Below are positions 5,894 to 62,932 of a DNA stretch of 64,000 nucleotides, piece by piece. Source of the DNA: Thermoanaerobaculia bacterium (GTDB lineage Bacteria > Acidobacteriota > Thermoanaerobaculia > UBA5066); the NCBI GenBank assembly GCA_963816185.1, contig CAWFJJ010000024.1, positions 480,001-544,000 on the forward strand, read 5' to 3'. Each line of letters starts with the position of its first letter. Position 1 is the stretch's first letter. Under the pieces are notes generated by a model. The model was not told where the DNA came from. It worked only from the letters and a program-made list of their open reading frames with translations, and ran no database searches. The position numbers and the translations under genes are program-made.

Positions 5894-6711
5894 CGCGAGC
5901 CGCCGCCGTCGAGCGCCCAACCCGCTCCGCGCCTCGCGATGCGCAGCGGATCCAGAGACTCGCCTTCGCAGGGTCCGCCGACGCAGAGCCCGTCCTCCGG
6001 CACGAATAGGGCGCCGTGGTTGCGGCAGACGAGAAAGAGGCCGTCAGCGGTGAGAAGCGGCTCGCCGTCCCGGTCGAGGGGGAGCGACACGTGAGGGCAC
6101 ACGTTGCAGTAGGCGCGCGCCCCGTCCGGTGTCGCGACGAGGAGGCCGGAGACGACTCCCGCGCCGTTCGGGCGGGGTTTTCGGAACGCCAAGGCGCGGA
6201 TCGAAGAGATCGATTCGGAGTCTTCTATGAAAGGGGAGCGGGATGCGAGCGTGCGAACGAGGTCCCGGCCTTCGTCGGACTCGGTGTCCGCGAAGTCGCC
6301 GCCCTCGGCTTCCTCGAGGAGGTGACGCAGGACCGCGGCGTCGCCGGGGGGCGTGGGGAGAAGGCGGGCCTCCGCCGCGGGCGAGAACCTCACGGCGTCC
6401 ACGGCGGCGGCGCGCGGCGCGCCGGCCAGCCCCCCTATTCGAAGAAACAGCAGCGTCACGTGCTGCGATGAGCCTCCCGGCGCCGCTCCGGGGATGGTCT
6501 CGAACCTCCATGGCGCGAGCGCAACCGGCGTGACGTCCATCTCCTCCTTCCACTCCCTGACGAGCGCTTCCTCCGGGGTCTCCCCGTCCTCGACTTTGCC
6601 GCCGGGCAGCTCCCACACTCCGGGCCAGGCCCCGCCGTCCGGCCGGCGCGACATGAGGAGCCGACCCTCGCGGACGAAGATTCCCGCGACGACGAGCCTC
6701 GTCCCGCTCAT
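5890..6711 (-). CDS. NUDIX (MutT/NudG-like) hydrolase fused to a C-terminal Rieske 2Fe-2S domain
   Basis: Nudix box GGKVEDGETPEEALVREWKEEM; Rieske ligands CPH...CRNHG plus GPC in the same frame. Confidence 0.8.
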   Translation of the reverse strand: MSGTRLVVAGIFVREGRLLMSRRPDGGAWPGVWELPGGKVEDGETPEEALVREWKEEMDVTPVALAPWRFETIPGAAPGGSSQHVTLLFLRIGGLAGAPRAAAVDAVRFSPAAEARLLPTPPGDAAVLRHLLEEAEGGDFADTESDEGRDLVRTLASRSPFIEDSESISSIRALAFRKPRPNGAGVVSGLLVATPDGARAYCNVCPHVSLPLDRDGEPLLTADGLFLVCRNHGALFVPEDGLCVGGPCEGESLDPLRIARRGAGWALDGGGSR

Positions 6712-7673
6712 CGGGGCGCCTTGCGGCGGAGAGCGGCGGCGGCATTCCGTGCGAGGCCTTCACGCGTGGCCCGCCAGATCGACGAGCCGAAGAAGCGTGC
6801 ACGAAACGCGTCGGCTCCGAGCGCGAGGATCTCCTCGGGGTCGAGGGACGCGGCGGGTCCTCCGTGCCCCGCGCTTCGGGCGCCGTTGAACGGACAAACG
6901 TCCTGACACTCGTCGCACCCGAAGAGACGACCCGAGAGAGCGGCCTCTTCCGCCGGCGTGAACGGTGTCCGCTTCTCGATCGTGAGATACGAGATGCATT
7001 TCCTCCCGTCGAGGACGCGCGGCTCGACGAAGGCGGCCGTGGGGCATGCGTCGAGGCAGGCCGTGCACGTCCCGCAGCGGTCCGCGCCCGGATCGGCGGG
7101 CGAGGCGGTCGGCGCGAGGGCGGCGTCGGTCAGGATCTCGCCGAGGACCACGTGCGAGCCGATGCCCGGCACGATCAGGAGTCCGTTCTTGCCGAGGAAG
7201 CCGAGGCCGGCGCGCGCCGCGACCTCGCGCTCGAGAAGAGGCGCCGTGTCGACGCAGACGCGGAAATGCGTGCCGCCCGGCGCGAGCGGGCGCAGATCCT
7301 CGATGACGGCCCGGAGGTGCCGGCGCACGACGCGGTGGTAGTCCTCGCCCCGCGCGAACTTCGCCACGTTGCCCGGCCCGTGGTCTTGCACTTCTCGCGC
7401 CACCGCGAGGACCGATCGCGTGTAGGGCAGGATCGCATCGAAGCGCTCGCGGGCCGCGGCGTCGCGCTCGAGGTACGCCATCTCCCCGTGGAGGCCTTTC
7501 TCGAGCCACACGCGGTAGCGCTCGAACGAGAGAGGCCGCGAAGCGGCCAGCACGCCGGCGGCCGCGAAGCCGTGGGCGCGCGCGGATTCGACCGCGGCCT
7601 TTGAAAGGCCGGCGGGATCGGCGGGAAGAGGAGGTGGCGGCTGGCGCGGAACGCGCGAAAAGGCGGGCCGCAT
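6708..7673 (-). CDS. queG: Epoxyqueuosine reductase
   Basis: DYH, VDTAPLLER, GKNG, CGTCTACLDACPT, CISYLTIE and FGCDECQDVCP motifs. Confidence 0.93.
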   Translation of the reverse strand: MRPAFSRVPRQPPPPLPADPAGLSKAAVESARAHGFAAAGVLAASRPLSFERYRVWLEKGLHGEMAYLERDAAARERFDAILPYTRSVLAVAREVQDHGPGNVAKFARGEDYHRVVRRHLRAVIEDLRPLAPGGTHFRVCVDTAPLLEREVAARAGLGFLGKNGLLIVPGIGSHVVLGEILTDAALAPTASPADPGADRCGTCTACLDACPTAAFVEPRVLDGRKCISYLTIEKRTPFTPAEEAALSGRLFGCDECQDVCPFNGARSAGHGGPAASLDPEEILALGADAFRARFFGSSIWRATREGLARNAAAALRRKAPR

Positions 7674-10376: not shown

Positions 10377-11414
10377 ATGGCGCGCGTCCTCGTCTGCACC
10401 GCGCAGGTGCCGTTCTCGTCCGGCGGCGCCGAGCGCCACGCGGAAGGCCTCGTGCGCGAGCTCGCGGCCTTCGGGCACGAGGCGGAGCTCGTGCGGATTC
10501 CCTTCAAGTGGTATCCGCGCGCGGAGATCCTCACGTCCGCGCTCGCGTGGCGGGTGCTCGACCTGTCGGAGTCGGACGGAAAACGCGTCGATCTCGTGAT
10601 CCCGATGAAGTTCCCGTCGTACCTCGTGAGGCACGAGAACAAGGTCGTCTGGCTGATCCACCAGTTTCGCCAGGCGTACGACCGCTTCGGGACTTCCCAG
10701 AGCGACTTCACCGCCTCGCCCGAAGACACGCGCTGGCGCGAGCTGATCGCCGAGGCGGACCGCACGGGGCTCGGGGAGGCGCGGAAGATCTTCGCGAATG
10801 CGAAAAACACCGCCGACCGTCTCGTGCGGTTCAACGGAATCGAGGCCGAGGCCCTCTACCATCCGCCGCCGCTCGCGGGCCGGTACCGATGCGAGGCCTC
10901 GCGGGGTTTCGCGCTCGTGGCCGGCCGGCTCGACGCCTGGAAGCGCGTCGACCTCGCGATCGGGGCGGCGGCGGCGGGGAAATTCCGCCTCGTGATCGCA
11001 GGCGACGGCGCCGATCGTGCGAGATTGGAAGGTCTTGCCGCCAAGGGTGGCGCCGAAGTGCGCTTCGCGGGGCGGGTGTCCGACGAGGAGCTCCTCGACC
11101 TTTACGCGACTTGTGGCACCGTGGTCTTTCCGCCCGTCGATGAAGACTACGGCTACATCGTGCTCGAGTCTTTCCTGTCGAAGAAGCCCGTCGTGACCTG
11201 CACGGATTCGGGCGGTCCGCTCGAGTTCGTCGTCGACGGAGAGAACGGGCGCGTCGTCGCGCCGGACGGGACGGCGCTCGGAGCCGCTGTCGCGGATCTT
11301 CTCGCGCAGCCGGAGAAGGCCCAGAAATTCGGAGAAAGAGGCTTTGAAAAGGTAAGAGACATCCGCTGGGAAGATGCCGTCCGGGCGCTGCTCGAGGCTG
11401 GCGGAATTCGGTAG
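10377..11414 (+). CDS. Glycosyltransferase family 4
   Basis: GGAE N-terminus, GRLDAWKRVD, EDYGYIVLES. Confidence 0.9.
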   Translation: MARVLVCTAQVPFSSGGAERHAEGLVRELAAFGHEAELVRIPFKWYPRAEILTSALAWRVLDLSESDGKRVDLVIPMKFPSYLVRHENKVVWLIHQFRQAYDRFGTSQSDFTASPEDTRWRELIAEADRTGLGEARKIFANAKNTADRLVRFNGIEAEALYHPPPLAGRYRCEASRGFALVAGRLDAWKRVDLAIGAAAAGKFRLVIAGDGADRARLEGLAAKGGAEVRFAGRVSDEELLDLYATCGTVVFPPVDEDYGYIVLESFLSKKPVVTCTDSGGPLEFVVDGENGRVVAPDGTALGAAVADLLAQPEKAQKFGERGFEKVRDIRWEDAVRALLEAGGIR

Positions 11415-11447
11415 AGAAGAACAAAGAGAGACGAAGAGAAGATTTCT

Positions 11448-12843
11448 ATGAAAGGGGAAGAGCGGGAGCGCGAATCGCCGGGCGGCCGCAACGCGACTCC
11501 GCAGCGCTCGGCGCTCTCCGTCGGGTTCATCGGTCCCCTCCCGCCCACACGCTCCGGCATCGCCGACTACGACGCCGAAATCCTCTCTTCCCTTTCTAAG
11601 AATTCTTCTCTTTCGGTCTCTTCGTATGAACCGGCCGACGCAGCCGCCGCGCTGAAGGCGAAGCACCACGTCCTTCTCTTCGAGATCGGCAACGACCCGA
11701 TGCACGCGCCGTCGGTCGAGGCGCTCTTCGATCCCGGGCGCCGGACTCCCGCCGTGGTCGTTCTGCACGAGTTCGTTCTCCACCACCTTTTCGCAGCGGC
11801 TTATCTGACGCGCTCCCGGCCGGAGGACTACGCGCGCGAGCTCGAGCGGGCTCACGGCGCACGGGGAAGAGCCTTTGCTGCGACGCGGCAAAACGGCTCC
11901 TTCGTCCCCGTCTGGGACCTCGACCCGTGGCTCTACCCGATGTCCGCCGGGGTGATTCGCGCCGCCGAGGCGGTGGTCTCGCACTCGGCGCTCGTGACCG
12001 GTGCGGTGCTCGCCGAGTGCCCGGGCACCCGCGCCCTCACGATCCCTCAGCACGTCGCGCCCGCCCCAAGGACGCCGCTCCTCGAAGCACGCGAAGCGCT
12101 CGGTTTTCCGCAGGGACCGGCCGGCGGGCATCACGCTCGGCATCGTGTCGCCCGCAAAACGCATCGGAAAGATCCTCGAGGCCCTCGCAACGCTCCCGCC
12201 CGACCGCCGGCCGTTCTTCTTCATCGGAGGATCGGTGGCCGAAGACGACGTCCTCCGTTCCATGGTGCGGGAGAGCGGCCTCGATGGGGACGTGAAGTTC
12301 GGCGGCTATCTCTCGGAGGAGGACCTCTGGCGGGCGGCCTCGGCATCGACGTTCGCCGTGAACCTCCGCCACCCCACGATGGGGGAGACGTCTCACGCCG
12401 TGTGCCGTCTCGCGGGCTTCGGCCTGCCGCTCGTCGTCTCCGACACAGGCTGGTTTCGCGAGCTCCCCGACTCGTTCGCCGACAAGATCCCGATCGGGGG
12501 AGACGAGGTCGCGGATCTCGCACGGGTCATGGAGCGCCTCGCGTTCGAGCCCGACCTCGCCCGCGAGCGGGGCCGCGCGGCATCCGAGTGGGGAGTGCCT
12601 CGGCGGCCCGAGCGCATCGCGGAAGCCTACCGGGTAGTGCTCGAAGAGGCGGCCATGGGTTGGTCGCGGCCTCGCGGCATGTCGGGGCGCGTGGCCGAAG
12701 CGCTCGCGCGCCTGGGTGTTGGACAGAGGGGAATGCACGGCGCCACGAGCCGCATGCCCGACGGGATCCTCTTGGCGGAGGTCGCGTCGCGTGCGACGGG
12801 TATCCTGCCGAGGGTGATGGAGAGAGAAAGGGATTTTGCCTAG
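11448..12843 (+). CDS. Glycosyltransferase family 4, one frameshift near 12111
   Basis: PLPPTRSGIADY and VVVLHE in frame 1; KRIGKIL...VNLRHPTMGETS in frame 2; joined by removing one base at ttt ccg [c] agg. Confidence 0.8.
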
Positions 12844-12891
12844 GAAGAGGAGAGAATTTCTTAGAAGGGAACAGGGCCTGCGGCGCGCTCG

Positions 12892-13875
12892 TCACATTGG
12901 AAACCGGCTGCGCAAATCGATCCGCAGCAGGACATCCGGAGCCACCGCGAGGGCGGCCTCGATTTCCTTTCTAAGAAATCCTAAATTGATCCCTCCCTCG
13001 TCATCCCCGAATTGATCGAGCTTTGCTTTCGCGAGCGCCAAGAGGCGCTTCGCCGGCTCGGCATTGCCGCGCTCGATGTGTACGCATGCCGCCGCGAGCT
13101 GGATGAGAGCCTGCAGAAAGACCTTGTCTTCGCCTTTGCTTTCCTTCCAGAGCAGCTCCCACTCTTCGTGGGCCTCGAAGAAGCGCCCGGCCCGGAAATC
13201 CGTGACTCCTTTCCCGAAGTCCGGCGACGCGGCGCCTCCGAACCGCGCGGGGGTCTCGGGGACGACGGAGATCGGCGCGAGGAAACCGCGCGCGAGGAGC
13301 TCCGTCGCCAGGAGGTCGGGGTCCGTCACGACGAAGCCGTCGATGCCGAGCTTCCGCGCGGCGTCGATGAGGTCCGCGCGGTCGTCGGCGTAGAGAGCAT
13401 CCTCTCGCCGCGCTCCGGATAGTGCGAGAGCCGCGTCGTAGTGCGCGGGATCGGGCTTGGCGACGCCGACCTCGAAAGACAGCGCCCTGAGAGGGACGAG
13501 ACGCGGCAGCTCCGGCGCGACGCGGAGGACGCCTTCCCAGTGGAGAGCGTTCGTGTTGGAGACGAGCACGGGCACGACGTCGGGCTCGAGGCGGCTCAGC
13601 GCGGCGAGAGCCGTAGGGACCGCGATGAAGATGTCGCGCCAGGCCGGGATCCAGACGTCGTCGTCGAGCCGGGGTATCCCGGCGGCGCGCTCGGCGGCGC
13701 GAAAGAAAGCGCGCGCCGTGATTCGTCCGAGACCGAATTCGTGCTCGAGCGCGCCGAAGAGGTGCGGGCGAAGGGTCTCGAAAGGCAGGCCGGCGGCCGC
13801 CTCGATCCGCCGGAGCGTCAGGTCGTGATCGAACCGGATGAGAACGTTGCCGAGGTCGACGAGGAGGGCTCGCAG
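12892..13875 (-). CDS. HAD-family hydrolase fused to a C-terminal DUF309 domain
   Basis: Frame open back to 13887 giving LLVDLGNVL; also SNTN, KPDP, ADD, then FFEAHEEWE...QALIQLAAACVH. Start uncertain (CTG). Confidence 0.75.
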   Translation of the reverse strand: MRALLVDLGNVLIRFDHDLTLRRIEAAAGLPFETLRPHLFGALEHEFGLGRITARAFFRAAERAAGIPRLDDDVWIPAWRDIFIAVPTALAALSRLEPDVVPVLVSNTNALHWEGVLRVAPELPRLVPLRALSFEVGVAKPDPAHYDAALALSGARREDALYADDRADLIDAARKLGIDGFVVTDPDLLATELLARGFLAPISVVPETPARFGGAASPDFGKGVTDFRAGRFFEAHEEWELLWKESKGEDKVFLQALIQLAAACVHIERGNAEPAKRLLALAKAKLDQFGDDEGGINLGFLRKEIEAALAVAPDVLLRIDLRSRFPM

Positions 13876-13887
13876 ACGGGCGCCCTT

Positions 13888-14707
13888 TCAGGGAAGGGCG
13901 GGCTGCCCGGTCAGGAGATAGGGATCCCCCGTGCGCAGATCGGTGACGGTCGCGTAACAGAGAGCGCGAGCGCCGTTCGAGAGATTGACGAAGACGGTGA
14001 GACGCCACGGGCCGCCCTCGGGGAGGAGAAGCCGAGGCGAAGTCGACATGGAAGATGTCATTGAGCTGGTGGAGCGAGAATGGGGGGACGGTCACGAGAA
14101 CGGTCTTGTATGGATTGCCATCCCAGTCCACGAGCTGGACGCCGGCCTCGAGGGGAACTCCGGTCGGGTTGATGACAACGGCGTTCGTCCGGTGGCTCGG
14201 GTCATTCGGGATTCCCGTGAGGTACAGGTCGCCGAGAATCGAGTTGTCGAATCCGACGGAATTGCGCAGCGGCTGGCCGGGGGAGAACTGACCGTACGTT
14301 CCGGGCACGGCGCCAGCGACGTTATATGTGTTGCTCGTGACCTGGACCGGCGTCGTCGATGAGCTCTTGATCTGAAGGAGGCCGTAGCTCGACCCGAACC
14401 CGAACGTCGACTGAACGATGTCCGGGAGCGTCACCGAGGCACGCGGTCCGAGATCGCCCGGGATGCGGTACGCGAGGCTCGCCGTCCCGTCGCGGTCGGC
14501 CTCCGTGTAGTACAGCGCGACGACTGCGGCGGAGAGAGGATCCGGATTGAAGATCGTGACGTCGGTTCGAAAGACGCCCGAGGCCCCGTTGATGTGCACG
14601 GCCGGAAGGAACGAGTCCGTCGATGAGATCGTGTCCGGCAGGGCAAGCCTTCCCGGGAGTACCAGGGCCGCGAGAAGGGCCGCCGCGGAAAGAGATGAAT
14701 TCTTCAT
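13888..14707 (-). CDS. Secreted hypothetical protein, frameshift near 14020
   Basis: Signal peptide, NGASGVFRTDVTIFNP, GTYGQF; continues to ...TGDPYLLTGQPALP* after removing one C from a C-run. Confidence 0.65.
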
Positions 14708-14747
14708 CGGTTTCTCCGTCGCCAGATTCTCACAGGGAAGGAGCTCG

Positions 14748-14785
14748 AAAACGAAAACGCCCCGGCGTCGCCGGGGCGTCTCGTT
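14748..14785 (-). terminator. Rho-independent terminator of the lipoprotein gene
   Basis: ACGCCCCGGCG/CGCCGGGGCGT stem followed by a T-run on the minus strand. Confidence 0.75.
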
Positions 14786-14803
14786 GTTCCAGGAGCTCGC
14801 CGC

Positions 14804-15037
14804 TTACTTGGTTGCGGGCGCGGAGCTCGTCGTGGTCGTGGACGTCGTTGTGGTCGTGGAGGGCATGGTCGTCGTGCCGGTGCCGGGGGCTGTGGACGTC
14901 GTGGTGGTCTTGGAGGTCTCTTCGACGACCTTGGGCGCCTCCACCTTGACTTCGGGCTTCTTTTCCTCAGGCTTGTTGCAGGCCACGAGGGACGCTGCGA
15001 CGGCGACGAGGGCGAGGGCGGATGTGAACTTCTTCAT
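14804..15037 (-). CDS. Small lipoprotein with a Thr-rich tail
   Basis: MKK + hydrophobic stretch + LVAC lipobox; AAGGAG RBS. Confidence 0.8.
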   Translation of the reverse strand: MKKFTSALALVAVAASLVACNKPEEKKPEVKVEAPKVVEETSKTTTTSTAPGTGTTTMPSTTTTTSTTTTSSAPATK

Positions 15038-15175
15038 TTCGGGGTACTCCTTGCTGTGTGATCGATCAGGTCGTTAGTGGGCCTGTCTGAGAGGGAAAAT
15101 CCGGGACTCGAGGGACGTCTTCGGGAAACACAAACACCGTTATAGACGGTTCGTACCGCCTCGAGCTTCGCCAAG

Positions 15176-15203
15176 AGGATACGGGAATTCGGCCTTCTGT
15201 CAA
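15176..15203 (-). promoter_or_regulatory. Putative sigma70 promoter for the lipoprotein gene
   Basis: TTGACA-N16-TATCCT on the minus strand. Confidence 0.5.
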
Positions 15204-15269
15204 GCCCATGAATGAGTTGGCCTCGAACTGTAGGTCCGGCTGGCCCTGATAGACTCCGCAGCCCGGGCG

Positions 15270-16571
15270 ATGTTCGAATCCCTCTCAAATCGACTCCAGC
15301 GCGTCTTCAAGGAGCTTCGCGGCGAGGGTCACCTCACCGAGTTCCACGTGGATGAAGCCCTGAAGGAGATCCGGACGGCGCTCCTCGAAGCAGACGTCAA
15401 CCTTCAGGTTGTCAAGGACTTCACGGCCCGCGTCAGGGAGAAGGCCGTCGGCCAGGAGGTCCTGACTTCGTTTTCGCCGACGCAGCAGGTGATCAAGATC
15501 GTCCGGGACGAGCTCACGCGGGTCCTCGGGGGCGAGCAGGCGCCGCTCGCCCTGAAGAAACGCCCCTCGGTGATCCTGCTCGTGGGCCTCCAAGGCTCGG
15601 GGAAGACGACGACCGCCGCAAAACTCGCCCTCCACCTGAAGACGTCGTTTCGAAAACACGTGCTCCTCGTCCCTGCCGACGTGCACCGTCCGGCGGCGAC
15701 CGAGCAGCTCCGGACGCTCGCGAAGGACAACGCCCTGATGGCGTTCGACCCGAAGGGCGAGCCGGACGCCGTCGTTCGCGCGAAGACGGCGGTGAAGGAC
15801 GCGAAGCTCCTCGGATACGACGTGGCCATCCTGGACACCGCGGGACGGCTGCACATCGACGAGGTCCTGATGGACGAGGTGGCGCGAATCCGCGACGCTT
15901 CCGAGCCCGACGAGATCCTCTTCGTGGCCGACGCGATGACGGGCCAGGACGCCGTCCGCTCGGCGGAAGCGTTCGCCGCGAAGCTCCCTCTGACCGGCGT
16001 GATCCTCACGAAGACGGACGGCGACGCGCGGGGCGGCGCCGCGCTCTCGATCGCGACCGTCGTGGGCAAGCCGCTGAAGTTCGTGGGCACGGGCGAGAAG
16101 GTGACCGAGCTGGAGCTCTTCCATCCGGACCGCGCGGCCTCGCGCCTTCTGGGTCTCGGCGACGTCCTCACGCTCATCGAGAAGGTCTCGGCGGAGACCG
16201 ACGAGGCCGCCGCCCTCCGCGCCGCCGAGAAGCTGCGCAAGAATACCTTCACGCTCACCGACCTCCGCGAGCAGATGGCGCAGCTCAAGAAGATGGGTCC
16301 TCTGGGCGGGCTCCTCGGACACCTCCCGAAGGTCGGGCCGCTCAAGGGGCTCGCGAACCTCGAGATTCCGGAGGACGCGACGAAGAGTCTGGAGGCCATG
16401 ATCGACTCGATGACCCCCGCGGAGCGCGAGGACCCGAAGCTCCTCGACGGCAGCCGCAAGAAGCGCATCGCGAAGGGCTCCGGCACGTCGGTGCCGGAAG
16501 TGAACCAGCTGCTGAAGCAGTATCTGTCGATGAAGAAAATGATGAAGGGCGCCGCGCGCATGCGCGGCTGA
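15270..16571 (+). CDS. ffh: Signal recognition particle protein
   Basis: ALLEADV, GLQGSGKTTT, DTAGR, DGDARGGAALS, M domain SRKKRIAKGSG. Confidence 0.97.
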   Translation: MFESLSNRLQRVFKELRGEGHLTEFHVDEALKEIRTALLEADVNLQVVKDFTARVREKAVGQEVLTSFSPTQQVIKIVRDELTRVLGGEQAPLALKKRPSVILLVGLQGSGKTTTAAKLALHLKTSFRKHVLLVPADVHRPAATEQLRTLAKDNALMAFDPKGEPDAVVRAKTAVKDAKLLGYDVAILDTAGRLHIDEVLMDEVARIRDASEPDEILFVADAMTGQDAVRSAEAFAAKLPLTGVILTKTDGDARGGAALSIATVVGKPLKFVGTGEKVTELELFHPDRAASRLLGLGDVLTLIEKVSAETDEAAALRAAEKLRKNTFTLTDLREQMAQLKKMGPLGGLLGHLPKVGPLKGLANLEIPEDATKSLEAMIDSMTPAEREDPKLLDGSRKKRIAKGSGTSVPEVNQLLKQYLSMKKMMKGAARMRG

Positions 16572-16602
16572 CCTTCGTCCGTCGAAAACGGAAGGAAACG
16601 TC

Positions 16603-16836
16603 ATGCTCAAGATCCGCCTGCGCCGCGTCGGCGGCACGAACGCCCCGGCGTACCGCATCGTCGTCTCGGACACCCGCCGCACGCCCACGGCCAAGATCGT
16701 CGAGGAGCTCGGCCACTACGACCCGACCAAGAACCCGCCGCGTCTCGAGTTCGACCGCGACAAGGCGAAGGCCTGGATCGCGAAGGGTGCGAGCGCGTCG
16801 GAAACCGTGCGGAAGCTCATCGCGAAGCCGGTCTGA
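16603..16836 (+). CDS. rpsP: 30S ribosomal protein S16
   Basis: MLKIRLRR..YRIVV..GHYDP..GA..SETV; synteny. Confidence 0.96.
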   Translation: MLKIRLRRVGGTNAPAYRIVVSDTRRTPTAKIVEELGHYDPTKNPPRLEFDRDKAKAWIAKGASASETVRKLIAKPV

Positions 16837-16870
16837 GGCGCGCCCGACGGGCGCGCCCGGGAGCGATCGC

Positions 16871-17389
16871 ATGACCGCGCCGGAAGATCGCGTCGTCATT
16901 GGTCGAATCGTGAAGCCGCACGGCCTCAAGGGAGAGGTCGTCGTCGAGGTGTTGACGGATTTTCCGGAGAGATTCTCAGAAGGGTTGAGAGTCCGCCTCT
17001 CCGGCGGTGCTCACGAGGCGCGAGAGGTGCGCATCGCGGCGGTGCGCTCGCATCAAGGCCGCGTTCTCCTCACCTTCGAAGGAATTTCGGACGTTTCGAT
17101 GGCCGAGACGCTTCGGAACGCGGAGCTGAGCGTGAGCGCGCGGGACGTCGCTCCCCGACCCGAGGGCTACGTCTACCACTGGGAGATCGAGGGTGCGCTC
17201 GCCGTCGACGCGGCGGGTACCGTGCTCGGCCGCGTCACGGAGCTTGCCGACGCCGGGGGGCGCTCTCTTCTCGTCCTCGAGACGGCACGCGGCGCTCGTG
17301 AGGTGCCGTTTTCCAGCCCGATCGTGGTCTCGGTCGACGTCGCCGGGAAACGCATCGTCCTCGATCCGCCGCCGGGACTTCTGGACTAG
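16871..17389 (+). CDS. rimM: Ribosome maturation factor RimM
   Basis: GRIVKPHGLKGEV, TDFPERF, PPPGLLD. Confidence 0.93.
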   Translation: MTAPEDRVVIGRIVKPHGLKGEVVVEVLTDFPERFSEGLRVRLSGGAHEAREVRIAAVRSHQGRVLLTFEGISDVSMAETLRNAELSVSARDVAPRPEGYVYHWEIEGALAVDAAGTVLGRVTELADAGGRSLLVLETARGAREVPFSSPIVVSVDVAGKRIVLDPPPGLLD

Positions 17390-17398
17390 GCTCGGCGC

Positions 17399-18145
17399 GT
17401 GCGGTTCGACATCGTCACTCTCTTCCCCGGTTACTTCGCGTCTCCGCTCGGGGAGTCTCTCGTGGGGCGCGCTTTGGAAACGGGGATCCTGGACGTCCAT
17501 CTCGTCGATCTTCGCGATTTCTCGGACGACCCCCATCGCAAGGTGGACGACGAGCCTTACGGAGGCGGGCCGGGGATGGTCCTCACCGCCCCTCCTGTCT
17601 TCGCGGCGGTCGAGGCTCTCAGGGCCGAGGAGAGCGCGCCGCCGCACGTCGTCCTCCTGTCGCCCCAGGGCCGGCGCTTCGACACGAGGTCCGCCCGGGA
17701 GCTCGCCGCGCGGCCGCGCGTCGCCCTCGTCTGCGGCCGCTACGAAGGGATCGACGAGCGGACGCGCGTCGCCGGCCTTTTCGACGGGGAGATTTCTCTC
17801 GGAGACTTCGTCCTTTCCGGAGGTGAAGCCGCCGCGCTCACGATCCTCGAAGCCGTATCCCGCTATCTCCCCGGTGTGGTCCAGGACGCCGCGAGCGTAT
17901 CGGCGGACAGCTTCGAAGACGGGCTGCTCGACTATCCGCATTACAGCCGCCCGCGGTCGTTCCGAGGGCTCGACGTGCCGGAGGTGCTGCTCTCCGGCCA
18001 CCACGAGGAGATCCGGAGGTGGCGCCGCGTAGAGCAGCTTCGCGCTACCTTCGAAAGGCGCCCGGACCTCCTTTGCGAGGCTCGGCTCGACGACGAGGAA
18101 AGAGCACTCCTGGAGAGACTTGCGAGAGAGCGGCGCTCGCCTTAG
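17399..18145 (+). CDS. trmD: tRNA (guanine37-N1)-methyltransferase
   Basis: DDEPYGGGPGM, CGRYEGIDER, SLGDFVLSGGE. Confidence 0.97.
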   Translation: MRFDIVTLFPGYFASPLGESLVGRALETGILDVHLVDLRDFSDDPHRKVDDEPYGGGPGMVLTAPPVFAAVEALRAEESAPPHVVLLSPQGRRFDTRSARELAARPRVALVCGRYEGIDERTRVAGLFDGEISLGDFVLSGGEAAALTILEAVSRYLPGVVQDAASVSADSFEDGLLDYPHYSRPRSFRGLDVPEVLLSGHHEEIRRWRRVEQLRATFERRPDLLCEARLDDEERALLERLARERRSP

Positions 18146-18238
18146 AATCGCGTCTCACGGGTGAACGGTTTTCTTGGGGTGCCGGTCGAAGTGTCCCCGA
18201 GTGTTTCGTCCCGTCACCACGATTTTGGAGGTTCCGCG

Positions 18239-18589
18239 ATGACGGACAAACTACTGTTGGCCGAAAAGGCCGCCCTTCGCCCGGATGTTCCGCCTTTCTC
18301 TCCCGGCGACACCGTCAAGGTCCACGTGAAAGTCAAGGAGGGCGAGAAAGAGCGCGTCCAGGTGTTCCAGGGCCTCGTGATCGCCCGCAAGGGCGGCGGC
18401 GCGCGCGAGACGTTCACCGTGCGCAAGATCTCGCAGGGTGTCGGTGTGGAGCGCACCTTCCCGGTGCACTCGCCTGTGCTCGAGAAAATCGAGGTCGAGC
18501 GCCATGGCCAGGTGCGCCGTGCGAAGCTGTACTACCTTCGGGATCGCCGCGGCAAAGCCGCCCGCATCGCGGAGAAGCGCGACAACTGA
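18239..18589 (+). CDS. rplS: 50S ribosomal protein L19
   Basis: [38 protein letters not shown]; GGAGG RBS. Confidence 0.97.
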
Positions 18590-18641
18590 CCCCGGAATCG
18601 CCGTGCCGGTGCGAAGCTCCGGCCGAAGGAAGCGAGGCACG

Positions 18642-19328: not shown

Positions 19329-19335
19329 GGCGATC

Positions 19336-22437: not shown

Positions 22438-22465
22438 GGCGCGGCCGGCTCTCCTGAGATCCGCC

Positions 22466-24448: not shown

Positions 24449-24546
24449 AGAGGCGCTGGCGGGAAACTTTTCCGTCTCGAGCCCGTACTGTTTGAGCGAT
24501 GCTATTCCCCTATCATCTCCTTCCCTTCAGGAGGCTTTCGTGACTC

Positions 24547-26958: not shown

Positions 26959-26965
26959 GACCGCC

Positions 26966-27706: not shown

Positions 27707-27736
27707 GTTCGAGAGCGCATCTGACAAACTCCGCGC

Positions 27737-28605
27737 GTGGTCGCCGACGTCCTCGCGCTCGTTCTCCTTCAGCTCGCCGTCGGCCTCGCGATCTGCAATC
27801 TCCTGACGCCGTCGAAGGATCTGTCGGGCGGATTCTTCGCCCTGCACGGACTGATCGGTTGCTTTGCGCTTTGCCTGTCGTGGCTCGTTTCGGGACGCGC
27901 TGGTTTTCTGCTTAGAAGGGAAGAGGGGGAAGCCGCGCGCGGCGCGGCCGCAGCTCTCGGGGCTCAGCCGTGGTTCGCTGCGGCGCTTTTCGCCGTTGCC
28001 CTCGCGACGCTGGTTGCCCATACACTTCTCGCTCGGGCAGGCTCCGGCGCCCCTCTTGCCCTTTCTAAGAATTTCTCTTCGTCTCGACCTGCTGTGGTGT
28101 CGCTCTCCTTTTGTCGCGCGTGCGCGTGGAACCATTCGCCTCCCTCCCCGGCATCGGCCCCGCCTGGCTCGCCGCCGGGCTTCTCCTCGGCGCCCTGCTC
28201 TTCGGCGCCGTCGTGTGGGCGATGAATCTCGGGCACTGGTATCTCGTCTCGACGTCGTTGCCGTTCGGCCTCCTCGTGCGCGCGACGGAGGCCTTCGCGT
28301 GCCTCGTGCTGCTGCGGGCGGTCTTCGCCGTCGTGGCGCTCGGCCTCGTGGCGCGGGCCTCGGCGGGCGACGGGGGAGAGGCGCTCGCAGGGCTCGTCGA
28401 TCCGATGCGCGACGGCTTCTTCTTCTGGTCGCGCGTGACGTGGGGCCTCCTCGCGCCCCTCCTCCTCGCGCCGTTCGTCGTGAAGACCGCGCGCATGAAA
28501 TCGAATCAGGCCGCCACGGGGCTCCTCTACGTGGGTCTCGTGTTCGTGCTCGTCGGCGAGGTCCTCGCCGCCTACCTCACGCGGCGTTCGGGACTTCCCG
28601 TCTGA
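27737..28605 (+). CDS. Multi-TM hypothetical protein (GHWYL motif), frameshift near 28068
   Basis: Hydrophobic ORF from 27737 continues in another frame (EFLFVSTCC...MNLGHWYLV...SNQAATGLLY). Confidence 0.65.
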
Positions 28606-29765: not shown

Positions 29766-29852
29766 GAGCTGGGCAATGGTAAGAGACAGAGAGGGAGAGA
29801 AGAAGATCTTCTTAGAAAGATCAAGAGGGGACCGAAGAGAAGATTTCGGATT

Positions 29853-30026
29853 GTTCCTATATGCGGCGGCCGCAGTTGCGGCCGCCGGCAATAGGAACTC
29901 CCGGATGTCCGGTGTCAAGGGTCTTCGACCGCTACGCGGCGCGCGTAGCGCGCCCTTGACTCCGGACATCCGGGGAGCACGTTTACCGCCGTCGGCGGCT
30001 GCATCAGCAGCCGCCGCATATAAGAA
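29853..30026. repeat. Composite hairpin (REPIN-like) repeat, copy 1
   Basis: Hairpin B (29853-29898), hairpin A (29898-29977), inverted hairpin B (29992-30026); cores shared with 45711-45838. Confidence 0.8.
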
Positions 30027-30063
30027 GAAATCTCCTCCTCCTCGTTCCACGTATCCTCGATTC

Positions 30064-30537
30064 GTGCGCGTCTCTGTCTACTGCTCCGACTGCCTCGCCC
30101 GCATCGAGGTTCCGCCGCCCCAGGAGACGCCCAGCGGCTCTGTCTCTTGCCCTTCTAAGCATTCCCCGATTTCCTTTTCCCATTCCGAAGCCGTCAAGGC
30201 CGGATCGCGGGTGGATGTCTGCTCTCGCTGTTCCTCCAGTGCGCTCTTCGGCCAGAAGGACTTCGACCAGCGCCTCGGCTGCGCGATCCTCGCCGCTGGC
30301 GCAGCGGTCGCCCTGGGCGTGTCGTGGCGTTTCGGCGGGATCTGGTTCGTGCCGGTGCTCCTCGCCGTCGCGGCAGCAGATTTCGTTCTCGCGCGCCGGG
30401 TCGCGCCCGTCGTCATCTGCTACCGATGCGACACGGAGTACCGGGGCGCCGCCGATGCTTCCGCCGCGCGGCCCTACGACCCGCACATCGCGGAGCGGTT
30501 CGCCGAGGTGAAGACCGTGAGGCGCATGAACCCCTGA
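30064..30537 (+). CDS. Hypothetical membrane protein with CxxC motifs
   Basis: CSDC, CSRC, QKDF, two TMs, CYRC, YDPH. Confidence 0.7.
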   Translation: MRVSVYCSDCLARIEVPPPQETPSGSVSCPSKHSPISFSHSEAVKAGSRVDVCSRCSSSALFGQKDFDQRLGCAILAAGAAVALGVSWRFGGIWFVPVLLAVAAADFVLARRVAPVVICYRCDTEYRGAADASAARPYDPHIAERFAEVKTVRRMNP

Positions 30538-41895: not shown

Positions 41896-41902
41896 GCGCG
41901 GC

Positions 41903-43805: not shown

Positions 43806-45637
43806 GTGCGGCGATCCGGCGCCGCGACGGACGGGCGCTCGAAGACCTCGACGTCCGGGTCGCGTTCGAGCCCGAGGACGTCGTAAGCGGCCGCGGGAGA
43901 GATGGAGGGAGGGTTCCCGACGAGGGCGTCGGAGTCCCACGCGAGGCCGCCGTAACCGGCGACGGACCCTTGCATCTTCTGGAAGACGTCGCGGGGGGTC
44001 CACTGCGTGTCGAACGCGCCCCATCGCGCGCCGAGGTGCAGCAGGATCTCGAGGTCCGTGCGCACGACGGGCGGCGACACGATCGCCATGTCCACGCGCT
44101 GCACGCGTCCCTTCACGTTCACGAACGTGCCTTCCTTGCCGGAAAGAGGCGCGGTTGGAAGCACGATGTCGGCGGCGTCCGTCAGCGCGTTCCGCTTGCG
44201 GGCATGGACGACGAGGACGCTCGCCTTGCGCAACTCGGCGACGAACGCGGGATCGGAGCATTTCTCGCTGAAGTCGGCATCGGCAATGTAGAGGACGGCG
44301 GGAGAAGAGAAAGAGAAAGAGGAAGAGGAAGATTTCTTAGAAAGAGAAAGATCCGAAGAGGAAGAGGAGGATGAAGAAGAAGATTTCTTAGAAGGGAAGA
44401 GGGAGTAAGCCGATCCGAGGGCGGAGCCATCGCCCGCGCTTGCGCGCTTCAAGCCGGCCGCCTCGCAGCCCCGGGAGTTTGGTGCCGCGTCCGTTCCGTA
44501 CAGCCACCCGTCCACCTTGTTCTTGATCCGCCTTCTTGGCCCTTCGTCGACGAGAAACTCGGGGGTGCCCACCTTCAAAGAATCTTCAAACAGCGTCTTC
44601 AAAAGCCAGTTCTCCTCGGTCGTGAGCCGCGCCGAGCCGAGAGCTAGTACTCTTCCTTTCGAAGCAATATTGTCTTTCTTTTCTTCCTCTTCGAGGTGCT
44701 CGCCGCCTTCCCCCCGCGCCCGGTCGATCGCGACCTTCACGGCGTCGAGCGCCTCGCCCCAGTTCGTCTGCTTGCGCGCGTCGCTGCCGGGGACGCGGAT
44801 CTCGGGCTTCTTGAAATCCTGCCGGTTGAGGTCCTCGGAGCGGAAGCGGCCGTAATCGCACATCCAGAAGTCGTTCACGGCGGGTTGGACGCGCGGAAGG
44901 TACCGGTAGACGACGCGGTCGCGGTGCTCGATGGACATGTTGCAGCCGATCTCGCAGCCGTCGCACACCGAGCGCGTCTTGTCGAGCCACCACACGCGCT
45001 TGCGGAACCGGAACTCCTTCGTCGTGAGGGCGCCGACGGGGCAGACGTCGGCCGCGCAGGCCGAGAGGTCGTTGTCGAGCAGATGGCCCTCGTGCGTCCA
45101 GACGAACGTGTGGCCGGCCCTCTCGACGAACGTGAGCTCGCCCGTCTGGGTGATCTCCGCGCAGAAGCGGATGCAGCGCGTGCACTGGATGCAGCGCGTC
45201 ATGTCCGCGATGACGTGGGGGCCGATCGGCGTGCGGTCGTAGCCTGGGAACTGCCGCCGAGGTTCGGACGTGCGTGAGACCGGCAGGCCCGCGCCCATGG
45301 CGTTGTCCTGCAGCTTGCACTCGCCGGCCTGGTCGCAGATCGGGCAGTCCAGCGGATGGTTGATGAGGAGGAACTCCATCGTCGCGTTGCGCGCGGCGAG
45401 GGCCTTCTCCGTCGAGGCCTTGATGACCATGCCGTCGCGAATGGGCACCGTGCACGAGGCCTGGATCTTCGGCACGCCCTCGACCTCGACCATGCACATG
45501 CGGCACTGGCCGACGATCGACAGGCGCGGGTGATAGCAGAAGTGCGGCACGTCGACGCCCGCCGCCCGGCACGCCTCGAGCGCGTTCGCGTCGTTCGGGA
45601 CTTCGACGACCTTCCCGTCGACGGTTACCTTTGCCAT
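43802..45637 (-). CDS. nuoG: NADH-quinone oxidoreductase subunit G (short form, with low-complexity inserts)
   Basis: CYH..CRMC..C, HPLDCPICDQAGEC, RCIQCTRC..CPVGAL, CDGCEIGC, EGTFVN. Confidence 0.92.
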   Translation of the reverse strand: MAKVTVDGKVVEVPNDANALEACRAAGVDVPHFCYHPRLSIVGQCRMCMVEVEGVPKIQASCTVPIRDGMVIKASTEKALAARNATMEFLLINHPLDCPICDQAGECKLQDNAMGAGLPVSRTSEPRRQFPGYDRTPIGPHVIADMTRCIQCTRCIRFCAEITQTGELTFVERAGHTFVWTHEGHLLDNDLSACAADVCPVGALTTKEFRFRKRVWWLDKTRSVCDGCEIGCNMSIEHRDRVVYRYLPRVQPAVNDFWMCDYGRFRSEDLNRQDFKKPEIRVPGSDARKQTNWGEALDAVKVAIDRARGEGGEHLEEEEKKDNIASKGRVLALGSARLTTEENWLLKTLFEDSLKVGTPEFLVDEGPRRRIKNKVDGWLYGTDAAPNSRGCEAAGLKRASAGDGSALGSAYSLFPSKKSSSSSSSSSSDLSLSKKSSSSSFSFSSPAVLYIADADFSEKCSDPAFVAELRKASVLVVHARKRNALTDAADIVLPTAPLSGKEGTFVNVKGRVQRVDMAIVSPPVVRTDLEILLHLGARWGAFDTQWTPRDVFQKMQGSVAGYGGLAWDSDALVGNPPSISPAAAYDVLGLERDPDVEVFERPSVAAPDRRT

Positions 45638-45710
45638 GCCACGTCCGAAGAGAACGAAGAGAAGAAGATCTTCTTAGAAAGATAAGAGAGAGAAGAGAAG
45701 AGGGGGATAT

Positions 45711-45838
45711 TTCCCGATTGGCCCGTGTCAAGGGTCTTCGACCGCTGCGCGGCGCGCGTAGCGCGCCCTTGACGCGGGTCAATCGGGAACAGATTGCCTG
45801 ATATCGGCGGCTGCATCAGCAGCCGCCGCATATAAGAA
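45711..45838. repeat. Composite hairpin (REPIN-like) repeat, copy 2, between nuoF and nuoG
   Basis: 45725-45773 matches 29912-29960 at 48/49; 45804-45838 is identical to 29992-30026. Confidence 0.8.
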
Positions 45839-54628: not shown

Positions 54629-55549
54629 ATGAGCGGCATAATCACCGGGAAGGTGAGCGCGAGAGGGGCCCCGATCCTGACCGTCGACGTGGAGGACTGG
54701 TTCCACCTCTGCGGGTCTCGCGCGTACTCCGATCCGGACTCCTGGGCGGGACGCGAGAAGCGGGTCCACCTCGGTGTCGAGCGCATCCTCGCGCTTCTCG
54801 ACGGATCCGGCTCGACCGCGACGTTTTTCGTCCTCGGCTGGGTCGCGCGACAGAGCCCCGCGCTGGTCAAGAGCATCGCGGACGCAGGCCACGAGATCGC
54901 CTGCCACGGCGACCTCCACCGCCGCGTCTTCGAGATGACTCTCGACGAGTTCCGCGAAGACCTCCGGAGGAGCCGCGACTCGCTGCGGGAGCTCGTCGGG
55001 AAGCCGGTGACGTCCTTCCGCGCGCCGGAGTGGTCGATGAAGAGCGCGAAAAACGCAGCCTTCGCAGTTCTCGCCGAGGAGGGTTTCACGCTGGACTCCT
55101 CGCTCACGACCGCGCCGCCCGTGGGCGAGCCTTCGAATCCGGATCGGCCCACGATGCTCGAGACCTCGTCGGGCCCGATCCTGGAGGTCCCTCCGCTCAT
55201 GGGCACTTTCTTCGGCTTTCGGGCGATGTGGGGCGGCGGCGTGTGCGCGCGAATGACGCGCGAGAGTCGCGTTTCGGCCGCGATCGAGCGGGCGCTCGCA
55301 AACGGCATCCCGCCCGTGCTCTACGGGCATCCCTGGGAGTTCGACGATGCCCATCCCCCGATGCCCGGCCTCTCTCCCGTCGAGCGTCTCGTCCACTTCG
55401 CGGGGCGTAGGCGGACGGAAGGGCGCTGGCGCCGCCTCCTCGCGCGGTATCGGTTCGAGCCGATCTCGTCGATTCGAGCGGAGCTCGAGAGGAAGAAAGA
55501 GAAAGAAGAGATTTCTGCGAATGGGAAGAGGGGAGGCGTCGCGGCGTGA
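54629..55549 (+). CDS. Polysaccharide deacetylase (DUF3473/PEP-CTERM-locus type)
   Basis: TVDVEDWFH, ATFFVLG, GHEIACHG..H, FRAP, HPWEFD. Confidence 0.88.
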   Translation: MSGIITGKVSARGAPILTVDVEDWFHLCGSRAYSDPDSWAGREKRVHLGVERILALLDGSGSTATFFVLGWVARQSPALVKSIADAGHEIACHGDLHRRVFEMTLDEFREDLRRSRDSLRELVGKPVTSFRAPEWSMKSAKNAAFAVLAEEGFTLDSSLTTAPPVGEPSNPDRPTMLETSSGPILEVPPLMGTFFGFRAMWGGGVCARMTRESRVSAAIERALANGIPPVLYGHPWEFDDAHPPMPGLSPVERLVHFAGRRRTEGRWRRLLARYRFEPISSIRAELERKKEKEEISANGKRGGVAA

Positions 55550-56613
55550 GCGCGCCTCTCGTGGTCTCCTCTGTATCGTCCTCCACCTTCGTCGCTCTTT
55601 TTCCCGGTCAGCTCTCCGAGAAGGCGGGAATGGGGGAGGCGCTCGCGCGACGCTTCGAGTTCGCCTCTTCCCTATTCGAAGAAATTTCCAGAAGATCAGG
55701 AGTTCGTCTCGCCGACGTCTTCTTTGGCGAGGGTGCTAAGAACCTCCACGACGACCTGCCGGCGCAAGTCGGCGTCTTTTCCGTCTCGCTCGCGGCGCTC
55801 GAGGCGCTGCGCCGCGTTCACCGCCTCGAGCCGGCGGCCGCGGCGGGATACAGCCTCGGCACGTATGCCGCGTTCGTCGCGGCGGGCGCGCTCGAGATAT
55901 GGGCCGCCCTCGACGTTCTCCTCGAAGCCGAGCGGCTCATGTCCGAGGCGTCCAGACGCGGCGAGCTGGACGGTACGATGGCGTACGTCATCGGCCTCCC
56001 GCGCCCGGCCGTCGAGGAAGCGCTCGCGGCGCTCACTCCCGATCGCGCGCGCCTCGCGATCGCGACGGAGAACGCGGCCGCGCAGTTCGTCCTGACGGGC
56101 GAGAGGGCGCTCGTCGCCGCGGCGGTCGAGGCGCTTCGGCCGAAGGCGCTGAAGGCGGATCTGCTTCCGATCAATGTCCCGATGCACTCGAGCAGCCTCT
56201 CGCGTGTGTGTGATCGTCTGCAAAATTTCTTAGAAGGGGGGGTGAGGGTAAAGCGGCCGGAAGCGGCTCTCTTCGCTCCGATGCTGGCACGGAAAATTGA
56301 GACCGCTGAGGAAGCTTCCTATACCCTTTCTAAGCAAATTTGCAGACCGTCGCTCTTCGCGCCGACGCTGCGGGCAATGGGCGAGGCCGGGTTGGCGCGC
56401 TTCGCCGAGGTCGGCCCGGGCGACGTCCTCACGAAGCTGGTTCGCTGGACGCTTCGCGACGCGAAGGTCGCGAATCCCGCGCTGGAGGATCCCGCTTCGA
56501 TCGAAGCGTTCGCGAAGTCCCTCGCGCCTCCTCCCCTCTTCCCCTTCAAAGAAAGATCCACCGTGGCCTTTGCCGAAGCAAAGCAGGACTCGCACGGGTC
56601 CGAAGCAAAATGA
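55546..56613 (+). CDS. FabD-like ACP acyltransferase (divergent)
   Basis: LFPGQ, GYSLG, PMHS, EVGPG. Confidence 0.82.
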   Translation: MSAPLVVSSVSSSTFVALFPGQLSEKAGMGEALARRFEFASSLFEEISRRSGVRLADVFFGEGAKNLHDDLPAQVGVFSVSLAALEALRRVHRLEPAAAAGYSLGTYAAFVAAGALEIWAALDVLLEAERLMSEASRRGELDGTMAYVIGLPRPAVEEALAALTPDRARLAIATENAAAQFVLTGERALVAAAVEALRPKALKADLLPINVPMHSSSLSRVCDRLQNFLEGGVRVKRPEAALFAPMLARKIETAEEASYTLSKQICRPSLFAPTLRAMGEAGLARFAEVGPGDVLTKLVRWTLRDAKVANPALEDPASIEAFAKSLAPPPLFPFKERSTVAFAEAKQDSHGSEAK

Positions 56614-58896: not shown

Positions 58897-58985
<89 letters not shown>

Positions 58986-62544: not shown

Positions 62545-62932
62545 GGATGTGTGGGTCGAAGCGGCGAAGCGCAGCGAGCCCCCTGCGGGGGGGAGGCGTC
62601 TTCGACGAGCGGGCACCATTGCGAGTGGTCGTTGAACGTGGCGACGAGCGACAGGACCACGGCAGGGTCGACCCCTCGCGGCAGGGCTTCTCGAACACGG
62701 CTCAGCGGTAGATCCCGGCGACTCCGTGGTAGCCTTTTGGAGCGGGAACACGGACCGAATACGGACAAATAGCGGGGGAGACGCGAAGGACCCCCGCCAA
62801 TCGGCACCGAAAGCCGGAAAGGTGGGCCTCCAGTCCCCCCCTTCCGCGCCAACCCCCTCTCCAGAATGCAGACTCTCGAAGAGCACCACGGGGGATTTTC
62901 TTAGAAGGTAAAGGGGGACGGCGCCCCGCAAA

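Follow-up and report, generated by a model that had tools for sequence, protein, structure and literature searches.

Paired, inward-facing purine-tract arms form a lineage-restricted repeat family in Thermoanaerobaculia genomes

The AT-rich word CTTAGAA recurs throughout a 64,000-nucleotide stretch of a Thermoanaerobaculia bacterium genome (GenBank assembly GCA_963816185.1, contig CAWFJJ010000024.1, positions 480,001 to 544,000; G000:C24:480001-544000 in our labels, and the window hereafter). A preliminary description made from the window had treated it as a single dispersed word. The word is indeed found genome-wide, but the true unit, overlooked in that description, is a pair of inward-facing arms with a preferred spacing. 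Two arms of ~45 bp face each other 40-400 bp apart, most often 72-76 bp, and each consists of the core TTTCTTAGAAGG within a tract that is purine-rich on one strand. These units form a repeat family with approximately 300 members per genome, in both intergenic and genic positions, which is confined to one genus of uncultured Thermoanaerobaculia (Acidobacteriota) and, at lower copy number, its sister genus, and whose arms are kept at the nucleotide level and interiors are not. We favour the view that the arms are paired sites on duplex DNA for one lineage-specific factor, with a probability of about 0.35. The window belongs to a 5.09 Mb assembly of 30 contigs with 62-69% GC and 94.9% completeness, here designated G000, and the other G-numbers (G003, G011, G014, G039, G040, G049, G050, G060 and so on) are labels of the compared genomes.

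The window contains 14 copies of CTTAGAA, whereas 100 dinucleotide-preserving shuffles gave 1.05 on average (sd 0.96, maximum 4), which bears out the over-representation claimed earlier. The 13 exact copies listed at that time are all in the sequence, at the place given or 2 nt from it because positions had been counted from TT: 11594-, 12860+, 12969-, 27911+, 28063-, 29811+, 30153-, 44336+, 44387+, 45673+, 56229+, 56328-, and 62900+. The fourteenth, at 18141+, is without the purine context and looks like a chance occurrence. Across the 5.09 Mb genome there are 449 copies of CTTAGAA and 337 of TTCTTAGAA, and the 11-mer TTCTTAGAARG is present 149 times in forward and 145 times in reverse orientation, compared with 8 and 7 for the word read backwards. 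The consensus from the 449 copies is rrGAtTTCTTAGAAGG(t/g)GAAgrGG, and the purine fraction on the motif strand is 0.6-0.9 from approximately -25 to +22, with ordinary composition farther out; the consensus and purine-skewed flanks first proposed from the window thus hold across every genomic copy.

A 38-column nhmmer arm model returned 362 hits, few of them beyond its seeds, and a position-weight scan tolerant of core variants was used instead, with the reversed sequence as a null that is itself inflated by purine tracts. The scan detected 644 arms in G000 at 20 bits or more, and the reversed sequence gave 89. With the threshold lowered to 18 bits, where the null yields 142 hits, the main cores are TTCTTAGAA (n=328), TTCTTCGAA (n=155), TTCTTTGAA (n=42), and TGCTTAGAA (n=35). 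Eight close variants had also been proposed for the window, and four of them (11446, 55515, 55681, and 56551) score at least 18 bits; the others fare less well, with 12.8 bits for 44580, 17.7 bits for 44664, and a pair at 6223/6438 that is recognizable by eye only.

The arrangement of the arms is strongly directional. Where neighbouring exact cores lie no more than 400 nt apart, 85 pairs are ordered + then - and only six - then +. Their spacing has a mode at 72-76 nt, a further cluster at 149-154 nt, and a sharp lower edge with few values below 63 nt, and same-strand neighbours cluster at 75-87 nt. Among the 644 arms scoring at least 20 bits, 354 make up 177 inward pairs; 154 of the remaining 290 have a weaker inward partner (at least 12 bits), compared with nine that have an outward partner, and a relaxed pairing rule gives 287 units in G000. 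The unit is symmetrical, so that either strand reads purine tract, TTTCTTAGAAGGTGAAg.., interior, ..cTTCACCTTCTAAGAAA, pyrimidine tract. The arm order is always purine-first, and we refer to the first arm as rightward and the second as leftward. The core TTCTnAGAA is a palindrome, and inverted arms of ~20-45 nt give the unit the layout of terminal inverted repeats. The interiors have no conserved columns in 20 units of equal size, and none are evident by eye in the 79 listed pairs no more than 230 nt apart. An interior can be native coding DNA, for example, the conserved N-terminus of a glycosyltransferase that lies between arms 11446 and 11600.

The family has a narrow taxonomic range. TTCTTAGAARG is present in all 28 other genomes of the genus, at 50-330 copies with equal forward and reverse counts, and in all eight genomes of the sister genus at 1-45 copies, with 45 in G039 and three exact copies in G040. 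The other 26 genomes of the family contain 0-2 copies, and 12 genomes of two other families of the order contain 0-1 (one in G024, none in G019 and the other 10); G060 is motif-free. When an 18-mer arm word was searched against one genome per bacterial and archaeal species, the matches were mostly metagenome-assembled genomes titled Thermoanaerobaculia or Acidobacteriota, and of the ~80 matches listed, ~10 came from scattered AT-rich taxa, as chance predicts. In the part of the literature covered by the matches listed, TTCTTAGAA appears only in unrelated eukaryotic, viral, and primer contexts, no study of genome repeats in Thermoanaerobaculia is among them, and no earlier account of the motif was found there, in agreement with its initial presentation as an undescribed motif.

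Placement relative to genes was assessed with a home-made codon-usage gene caller (88% coding), whose start positions are unreliable, so that counts of genic copies and of enclosed starts are rough. By this map, 222 of the 449 exact copies lie in called genes (124 sense, 98 antisense), and 227 lie in the 12% of the genome that is intergenic, an approximately 7-fold enrichment. Of the 177 strong pairs, 88 fall entirely inside a single called gene, 26 extend across a gene end, and 63 lie between genes. Alignment confirmed genic placement for NuoG, RNase R, and an unnamed membrane protein. Open reading frames and Pfam matches identify the occupied window genes as NuoG, a group 1 glycosyltransferase, DUF309/HAD, an acyltransferase (FabD-like), RimM, and RNase R, together with the membrane protein, in accordance with the copies inside genes noted previously. 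Arms are read through in frame on either strand, in at least two frames per orientation. Antisense arms encode Ser/Leu/Lys strings (..SLFPSKKSSSSSSSSSSDLSLSKKSSSSS.. in NuoG) and sense arms encode Glu/Gly/Lys strings (such as ..DFLEGEEG..); depending on the gene, a leftward arm is read as SKK or LLR and a rightward arm as DFLEG or GFLRK. Because at least two frames are used per orientation, the constraint on the arms is not on the peptide, and protein-level constraint as an explanation of the motif is ruled out by this use of frames, by the use of both strands, and by the intergenic position of half of the copies.

Comparison of orthologous sites shows how the arms are maintained. For the majority of the 19 arms in the window, an orthologous arm is found in five syntenic genomes; 44336 and 56551 occur only in the three closest genomes, within length differences of 51 and 63-66 nt, respectively. 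In NuoG, an antisense arm is at the same place in 12 of 12 aligned genes of the genus, and its core TTCTAAGAAATCTTC is intact in eight of these. The length of the Ser run differs by whole-codon steps, and three genomes have a tandem second copy. Residues 405-444 have no aligned counterpart in genomes from the order's other families, and we regard the NuoG site as an in-frame insertion of a palindromic unit common to all 12 genomes of the genus and missing from order-level relatives. In the membrane-protein gene (27911/28069), both arms are kept in 19 of 19 aligned species and the interior varies in sequence and length. The unit inside the RNase R gene is common to the genus and the sister genus, with intact arms in four of five ingroup genomes. 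At this site, an outgroup genus has AFFQGDE in place of the ingroup's DFLEGEE and PGEEKVPAEV in place of PSKKIFSPDV, with 20 fewer residues separating the two segments, from which it follows that the arms lie over codons resembling the native ones and that the interior is a gain. In the NuoG, membrane-protein, and RNase R alignments, flanking synonymous sites vary while arm cores stay. Weak arms in FabD (SSLFEEIS) and RimM (ERFSEG, TFEGIS) represent unusual codon choice over family-typical residues, with scores near noise. The preliminary description had suggested that copies force unusual codons, and this is seen where the motif overlies native codons in RNase R, FabD, and RimM. The ortholog alignment it proposed shows arms at orthologous sites, some inserted in frame (NuoG) and some written over native codons (RNase R).

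Turnover also occurs. Some species have, and others lack, modules of 51, 63-66, and 78 nt, without recognizable target duplications, and an intergenic unit varies by an in-frame 78 nt module with an extra arm. The RNase R site of G040 (G040:C1:1888116-1888787), in the genome that retains only three exact copies, has degenerate arms, as if the constraint on arms had been lost in that lineage. Neither chance nor an assembly artefact can account for the motif, because independent assemblies of as many as 28 species have the same arms at orthologous positions. Read evidence came from Logan contigs of soil runs (word shares at most 0.30 for DNA and 0.05 for RNA), in which short contigs span arms 11600, 30159, and 16975/17081 with 0-2 differences; these runs possibly include the source sample. 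The motif had been proposed as a genome-wide cis-signal under selection or molecular drive. Sequence retention at the nucleotide level, at orthologous sites with varying synonymous flanks, favours that part of the proposal, whereas none of the three candidate functions attached to it, i.e., a nucleoid protein site, an uptake signal, or the target or scar of a mobile system, is proved.

Taken together, four properties of the units lead us to favour recognition of duplex DNA by one trans-acting factor: arm order is exclusively purine-first, neither strand nor reading frame matters, the core is palindromic, and the spacing has a lower limit. On this view a single sequence-specific factor, peculiar to the lineage, would recognize each arm; the palindromic core TTCTnAGAA makes a dimeric protein probable. 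Such a factor would act on two head-to-head sites at least ~60-75 bp apart, and could, for example, be a protein that bridges or loops DNA, or else a transposase or recombinase that has been domesticated. Selection, or drive linked to the factor, would keep old arms and turn near-matches in tolerant codons into new ones, and the family probably began as a miniature palindromic repeat. More tentatively, the arms may be the cis half of an undescribed system in which a lineage-specific protein reads head-to-head sites ~75 bp (or multiples thereof) apart, both within genes and outside them, and either organizes the DNA through a looping or wrapping code set by sequence or drives its own sites into the genome at the cost of tolerant codons in core genes, with the motif decaying once the reader is lost, as seemingly in G040; we consider this fuller scheme possible rather than probable. 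Several observations weigh against recognition of paired duplex sites. The long purine tracts that flank the core are unexplained by a simple dimer site, the spacings, as read from the spacing list, are without clear 10.5 bp phasing, and no candidate reader protein was found. Serine recombinases do not track the motif, as none were found in G039 (45 copies) and they are present in G040 (three copies). In predicted folds of 45 units, the arms pair with a mean z of -2.85, and the lack of excess covariation in 20 units of equal size was determined in a fixed register that could miss bulged pairing. Finally, some units bracket a start codon, with an upstream purine arm that is Shine-Dalgarno-like (GGAGG or GAGG) and a pyrimidine arm in the first 10-50 codons, a layout that suits an RNA-level role as a switch or in translational coupling.

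Such a role is the leading alternative to duplex-site recognition, and we regard it as unlikely. The 5' purine arm and 3' pyrimidine arm would pair as a hairpin, in RNA or in single-stranded DNA, to control translation start, mRNA decay (as an RNase III-type target, like Correia elements), or termination; in the translation-start variant the hairpin would hide the ribosome-binding site or couple translation to the upstream gene. Besides the folds, it would be consistent with the symmetry of the unit, which gives the same RNA in either gene orientation, and with the start-bracketing units, which include those of the glycosyltransferase, the FabD-like gene, the gene after G000:C24:137003 (10 species), and a sister-genus thioredoxin-like lipoprotein; in start-bracketing units the pyrimidine arm is often within a signal peptide. 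It would also suit the rightward arms that often start 18-46 nt past the stop of the upstream same-strand gene. The 16S rRNA (G000:C1:444004-445559) has the 3' end GGATCACCTCCTTTCTAAGGGATCTC (canonical GGATCACCTCCTTTCTAAGGG), and the leftward-arm consensus TTCACCTTCTAAGAAATCT equals this 3' end minus CCTT and with GG>AA, a likeness noticed by eye and post hoc; the variant CTTAGAAAGGGG is complementary to 16S CCUCCUUUCUAAG, and the rightward arm resembles the complement of the 16S 3' end. This may be coincidence in purine-rich sequence, since the CCUCC core is exactly the missing part, and we keep it as a lead only. Against a hairpin, an arm is no better matched to its own partner than to others: within the 72-76 nt class, the arms of 20 units pair at 64.4% with their own partner and at 65.9% with shuffled ones, and 449 of 500 shuffles reach at least the own-partner value. 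RNAalifold on 20 units retains only the 8 invariant core pairs, and in six of six window units with a variant core the partner is without the same variant. We attribute the pairing seen in folds to the shared consensus, and the absence of an own-partner advantage together with the uncompensated variant cores implies that each arm is held to the common consensus and not to its partner. A plain hairpin would permit both arm orders, only one of which is seen, loops of 45-300 nt would be odd under selection, and many units are deep within genes (NuoG, RNase R, and the membrane protein). Start codons inside units are not enriched on the crude gene map with its unreliable starts (34 of 287, ~36 expected); in a hand check of the 72-76 nt class, five of 10 units had a start just after the rightward arm that was in frame with the gene called downstream, with codons picked post hoc, which we do not count as evidence. 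Terminator-like sites are not enriched over 11000-30999 (14 versus 11.2 expected) and only one adjoins an arm, and the 45-300 nt between arms contrasts with the 3-8 nt loop of an intrinsic terminator. The window has no Rfam family match other than a tRNA at 58897-58982.

Alternatively, a miniature palindromic mobile element (of the miniature inverted-repeat transposable element (MITE), Rickettsia palindromic element (RPE), or repetitive extragenic palindrome (REP) kind) may have proliferated long ago in the ancestor of the two genera and left the units as functionless relics kept by inertia and local tandem duplication, which we think somewhat less likely still. The terminal-inverted-repeat layout with a modal unit size, the hundreds of copies with their intergenic enrichment, whole units in frame in protein loops (NuoG, RNase R), the variation in copy number between species, the modules that come and go, the tandem arrays, and the mosaics of arms with other small palindromic repeats in the genome would all be expected of relics. 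Inertia does not explain intact arms beside randomized interiors that share no sequence between copies. The arms are near-identical at orthologous sites across 28 species and the sister genus, which requires constraint, given the decay seen in G040. The orthologues compared showed neither a target-site duplication nor a clean empty site, some arms overlie native codons without insertion, and no arm-bounded element of 0.4-4 kb stands out in G000, where that range holds 13 + then - and 64 - then + arrangements. The Y1 transposase RAYT (PF01797) had no match in G000 in a search that matched six of 14 control genomes. A molecular drive resembling that of uptake signals, in which a receptor for DNA uptake favours the motif and recombination then propagates and keeps it, seems improbable to us. 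It would account for a clade-specific over-represented word with equal strand counts, for tolerant genic sites in more than one frame that are conserved between species and decayed in one lineage, and it could draw on ComEC, which is encoded in G000. However, ComEC is equally present in motif-poor G040 and motif-free G060, and it is without discriminating value because these relatives share it. The inward pairing argues against this option, as sites paired 60-400 bp apart, also within genes, are not required by uptake; the density of approximately one per 8-11 kb compares with approximately one per kb for known uptake signals, and the 45 nt purine tracts are left unexplained. Least of all do we credit the possibility that the arms are crossover sites of a global site-specific recombinase and bound invertible or excisable segments. 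The inverted repeats have a common consensus and a minimum spacing of ~60-75 bp, as for two sites joined in cis, but interior orientation is uniform in all orthologues compared, and contigs of four soil runs, which can hide rare forms, contained no strand-changing joint at arms. Units also lie in core genes (nuoG, fabD-like, rimM, and RNase R), and the distribution of serine recombinases, already cited, fits no better here.

Known dispersed repeats provide partial parallels. The REP, BIME, and REPIN sequences of proteobacteria, which are associated with RAYT, consist of hundreds of short dispersed repeats, often in inverted doublets with a preferred spacing and in intergenic mosaics. The present family resembles them in its inverted doublets (85 inward to 6 outward, mode 72-76 nt) and hundreds of copies, and differs in that half of its arms are genic and translated, no RAYT gene accompanies it, and the spacer is unconserved. 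Furthermore, the REP is a 20-35 bp hairpin of its own, whereas each arm has a palindrome of 9-11 bp embedded in a purine tract. RPEs are palindromic units of ~100-150 bp in frame in loops of housekeeping proteins, kept at orthologous sites across the genus, and the in-frame units of NuoG and RNase R, common to species of the genus, are similar. RPE copies, unlike the units described here, align over the whole element and not over the arms only, and some of the present arms overlie native codons. The Correia or nemis elements of Neisseria are MITEs whose inverted ends form RNase III substrates and which are co-transcribed with their neighbours. Copy number, unit size, and terminal inverted repeats are comparable, but the conserved body, the TA target duplication, and the mostly intergenic location of Correia elements were not found here. 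The DNA uptake sequence (DUS) of Neisseriaceae and the uptake signal sequence (USS) of Pasteurellaceae are clade-specific words with extended flanks that occur equally on both strands, in tolerated coding sites, and sometimes as inverted pairs. The clade-specific over-represented word, equal strands, and genic and intergenic sites are shared with them; here, in contrast, pairing is the rule, at 60-400 bp spacing and also in genes, and density is about 10-fold lower than that of uptake signals. The family is closest to REP/BIME doublets, RPEs, and uptake sequences, yet it fails a defining feature of each.

In the window, the unit at 11432..11614 has a rightward arm at 11446 whose core, CTATGAA, contains the ATG of the glycosyltransferase ORF, and a leftward arm at 11600 (24.2 and 34.8 bits). 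The leftward arm is translated as ..LSSLSKNSS.., the interior encodes the native N-terminus GFIGPLPPTRSGIADY, and both arms are at the matching place in G003, G049, and G050. The glycosyltransferase itself is split over two frames near 12050-12145: the ORF from 11448 is good to approximately residue 220, whereas the C-terminal portion (Glycos_transf_1) is encoded by ORF 12001/12145-12843, the split near ggccggcgggcatcac being a frameshift, a pseudogene, or an assembly error. A unit at 12846..12989 lies between convergent genes, with a rightward arm at 12860, 17 nt past the stop of the + strand gene, and a leftward arm at 12975 inside the 3' end of the - strand DUF309/HAD gene (..GFLRKEIEA.., Pfam DUF309), at 32.7 and 32.1 bits; orthologous arms are present in G003 and G011. 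The unit at 27897..28083 is within the membrane-protein gene (ORF from 27737), with a rightward arm at 27911 and a leftward arm at 28069 (19.6 and 33.7 bits). Two weak units complete this part of the list. One, at 6205..6460, was identified by eye from the rightward core TTCTATGAA at 6223 and the leftward core TTCGAAGAA at 6438, ~215 nt apart, both absent from the list of arms of at least 18 bits. The other, in rimM (16961..17095, Pfam RimM), has the cores CTCAGAA (codons ERFSEG) and CTTCGAA (codons TFEGIS) at 19.1 and 19.5 bits; its arms overlie RimM sequence without insertion, the DNA is identical in G011, G049, G014, and G050, and G003 has other codons. Given the 142 null hits at that threshold, the rimM arms could be chance hits.

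The nuoG gene (- strand) contains nested arms at 44322..44680. Its + arms, 44336 and 44387, have the antisense translation SLFPSKKSSSS...LSKKSSSS and face weaker - strand arms at 44580 (LFEDSLKV) and 44664 (EEKKDNIASKGR). Between nuoF and nuoG, antisense to the operon, is a single rightward arm at 45659..45697 (+ strand, 36.0 bits), followed by a partial copy of another palindromic element, which is treated below. At the start of the FabD-like gene (55501..55695; 21.5 and 20.7 bits), a rightward arm at 55515 precedes the GTG at 55546 by 31 nt, and a leftward arm at 55681 forms the codons SSLFEEIS without insertion (Pfam Acyl_transf_1). Upstream of this gene (55470-55540), orthologues have one to three tandem rightward arms, with two copies in G003 and three in G011 and a period of ~35-45 nt, which shows local array growth. 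Inside the same gene, the position-weight scan and orthologue comparison delimit a unit at 56215..56565 with a rightward arm at 56229, a leftward arm at 56334, and an extra leftward arm at 56551, which sits in a 63-66 nt stretch found only in G000, G003, and G011. A single rightward arm at 62886..62924 (+ strand) is 33 nt upstream of the RNase R ATG (62933.., Pfam RNB, CSD2), and the full unit inside that gene is just beyond the window end, at G000:C24:544114/544177.

The remaining unit, at 29797..30173 in a divergent intergenic region (position-weight scan and sequence), has a rightward arm at 29811 and a leftward arm at 30159 that is present in G003, G011, G049, and G050. Its 348 nt spacing takes in an unrelated palindromic element, a composite repeat of ~185 bp found in the window at 29846-30030 and, partially, after the nuoF-nuoG arm at 45707-45838. 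This second repeat comprises the hairpin TTCCTATATGCGGCGGC..GCCGCC, the long palindrome CCGGTGTCAAGGG..CCCTTGAC..CCGG, and a hairpin ..GCAGCCGCCGCATATAAGAA, and two of its signature words match 30 and 44 times in the genome with no more than one mismatch. In two relatives it sits exactly within an arm core (TTTCTTA|TACGCGG), and this exact interruption suggests a TA-targeting MITE that lands in AT-rich arm cores. Elsewhere in the genome, G000:C28:225100-225260 and C8:138462-138630 have a near-identical interior of ~100 nt (..ctcggcccggtaccccctgctccttcgcgcgtgaactcgcttcgctcagacagc..), another repeat nested between arms. Two further features of the window are unconnected with arms. AT skew of +0.23 to +0.30 across 36000-44000, over the - strand nuoH-N membrane-subunit genes, is ordinary T-rich coding for hydrophobic proteins. 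Soil-run contigs accumulate at 22900-23700 and 27000-27700 and join the two regions (22968>27451, 27436>23990); these joints probably reflect conserved paralogous domains that other organisms share and not rearrangement.

Dispersed bacterial repeats are usually selfish intergenic insertions, such as REPs and MITEs, or single words of uptake bias, such as DUS and USS. The present family has a strict two-site architecture, is conserved at the nucleotide level in no fewer than 28 species, is imprinted on core-gene codons, and has decayed in one lineage. Taken together, these features imply a trans-acting reader, and they do so in a soil phylum whose genetics is little developed. Should that reader bridge DNA, bacteria would offer a rare example of chromosome architecture specified by sequence; if the units are read at the RNA level, ~300 genes would be under one post-transcriptional switch. 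The motif is also a clean metagenome marker for the genus, and it explains the odd low-complexity Ser-, Leu-, or Glu-rich inserts and the rare codons found in proteins and genes of these bacteria.

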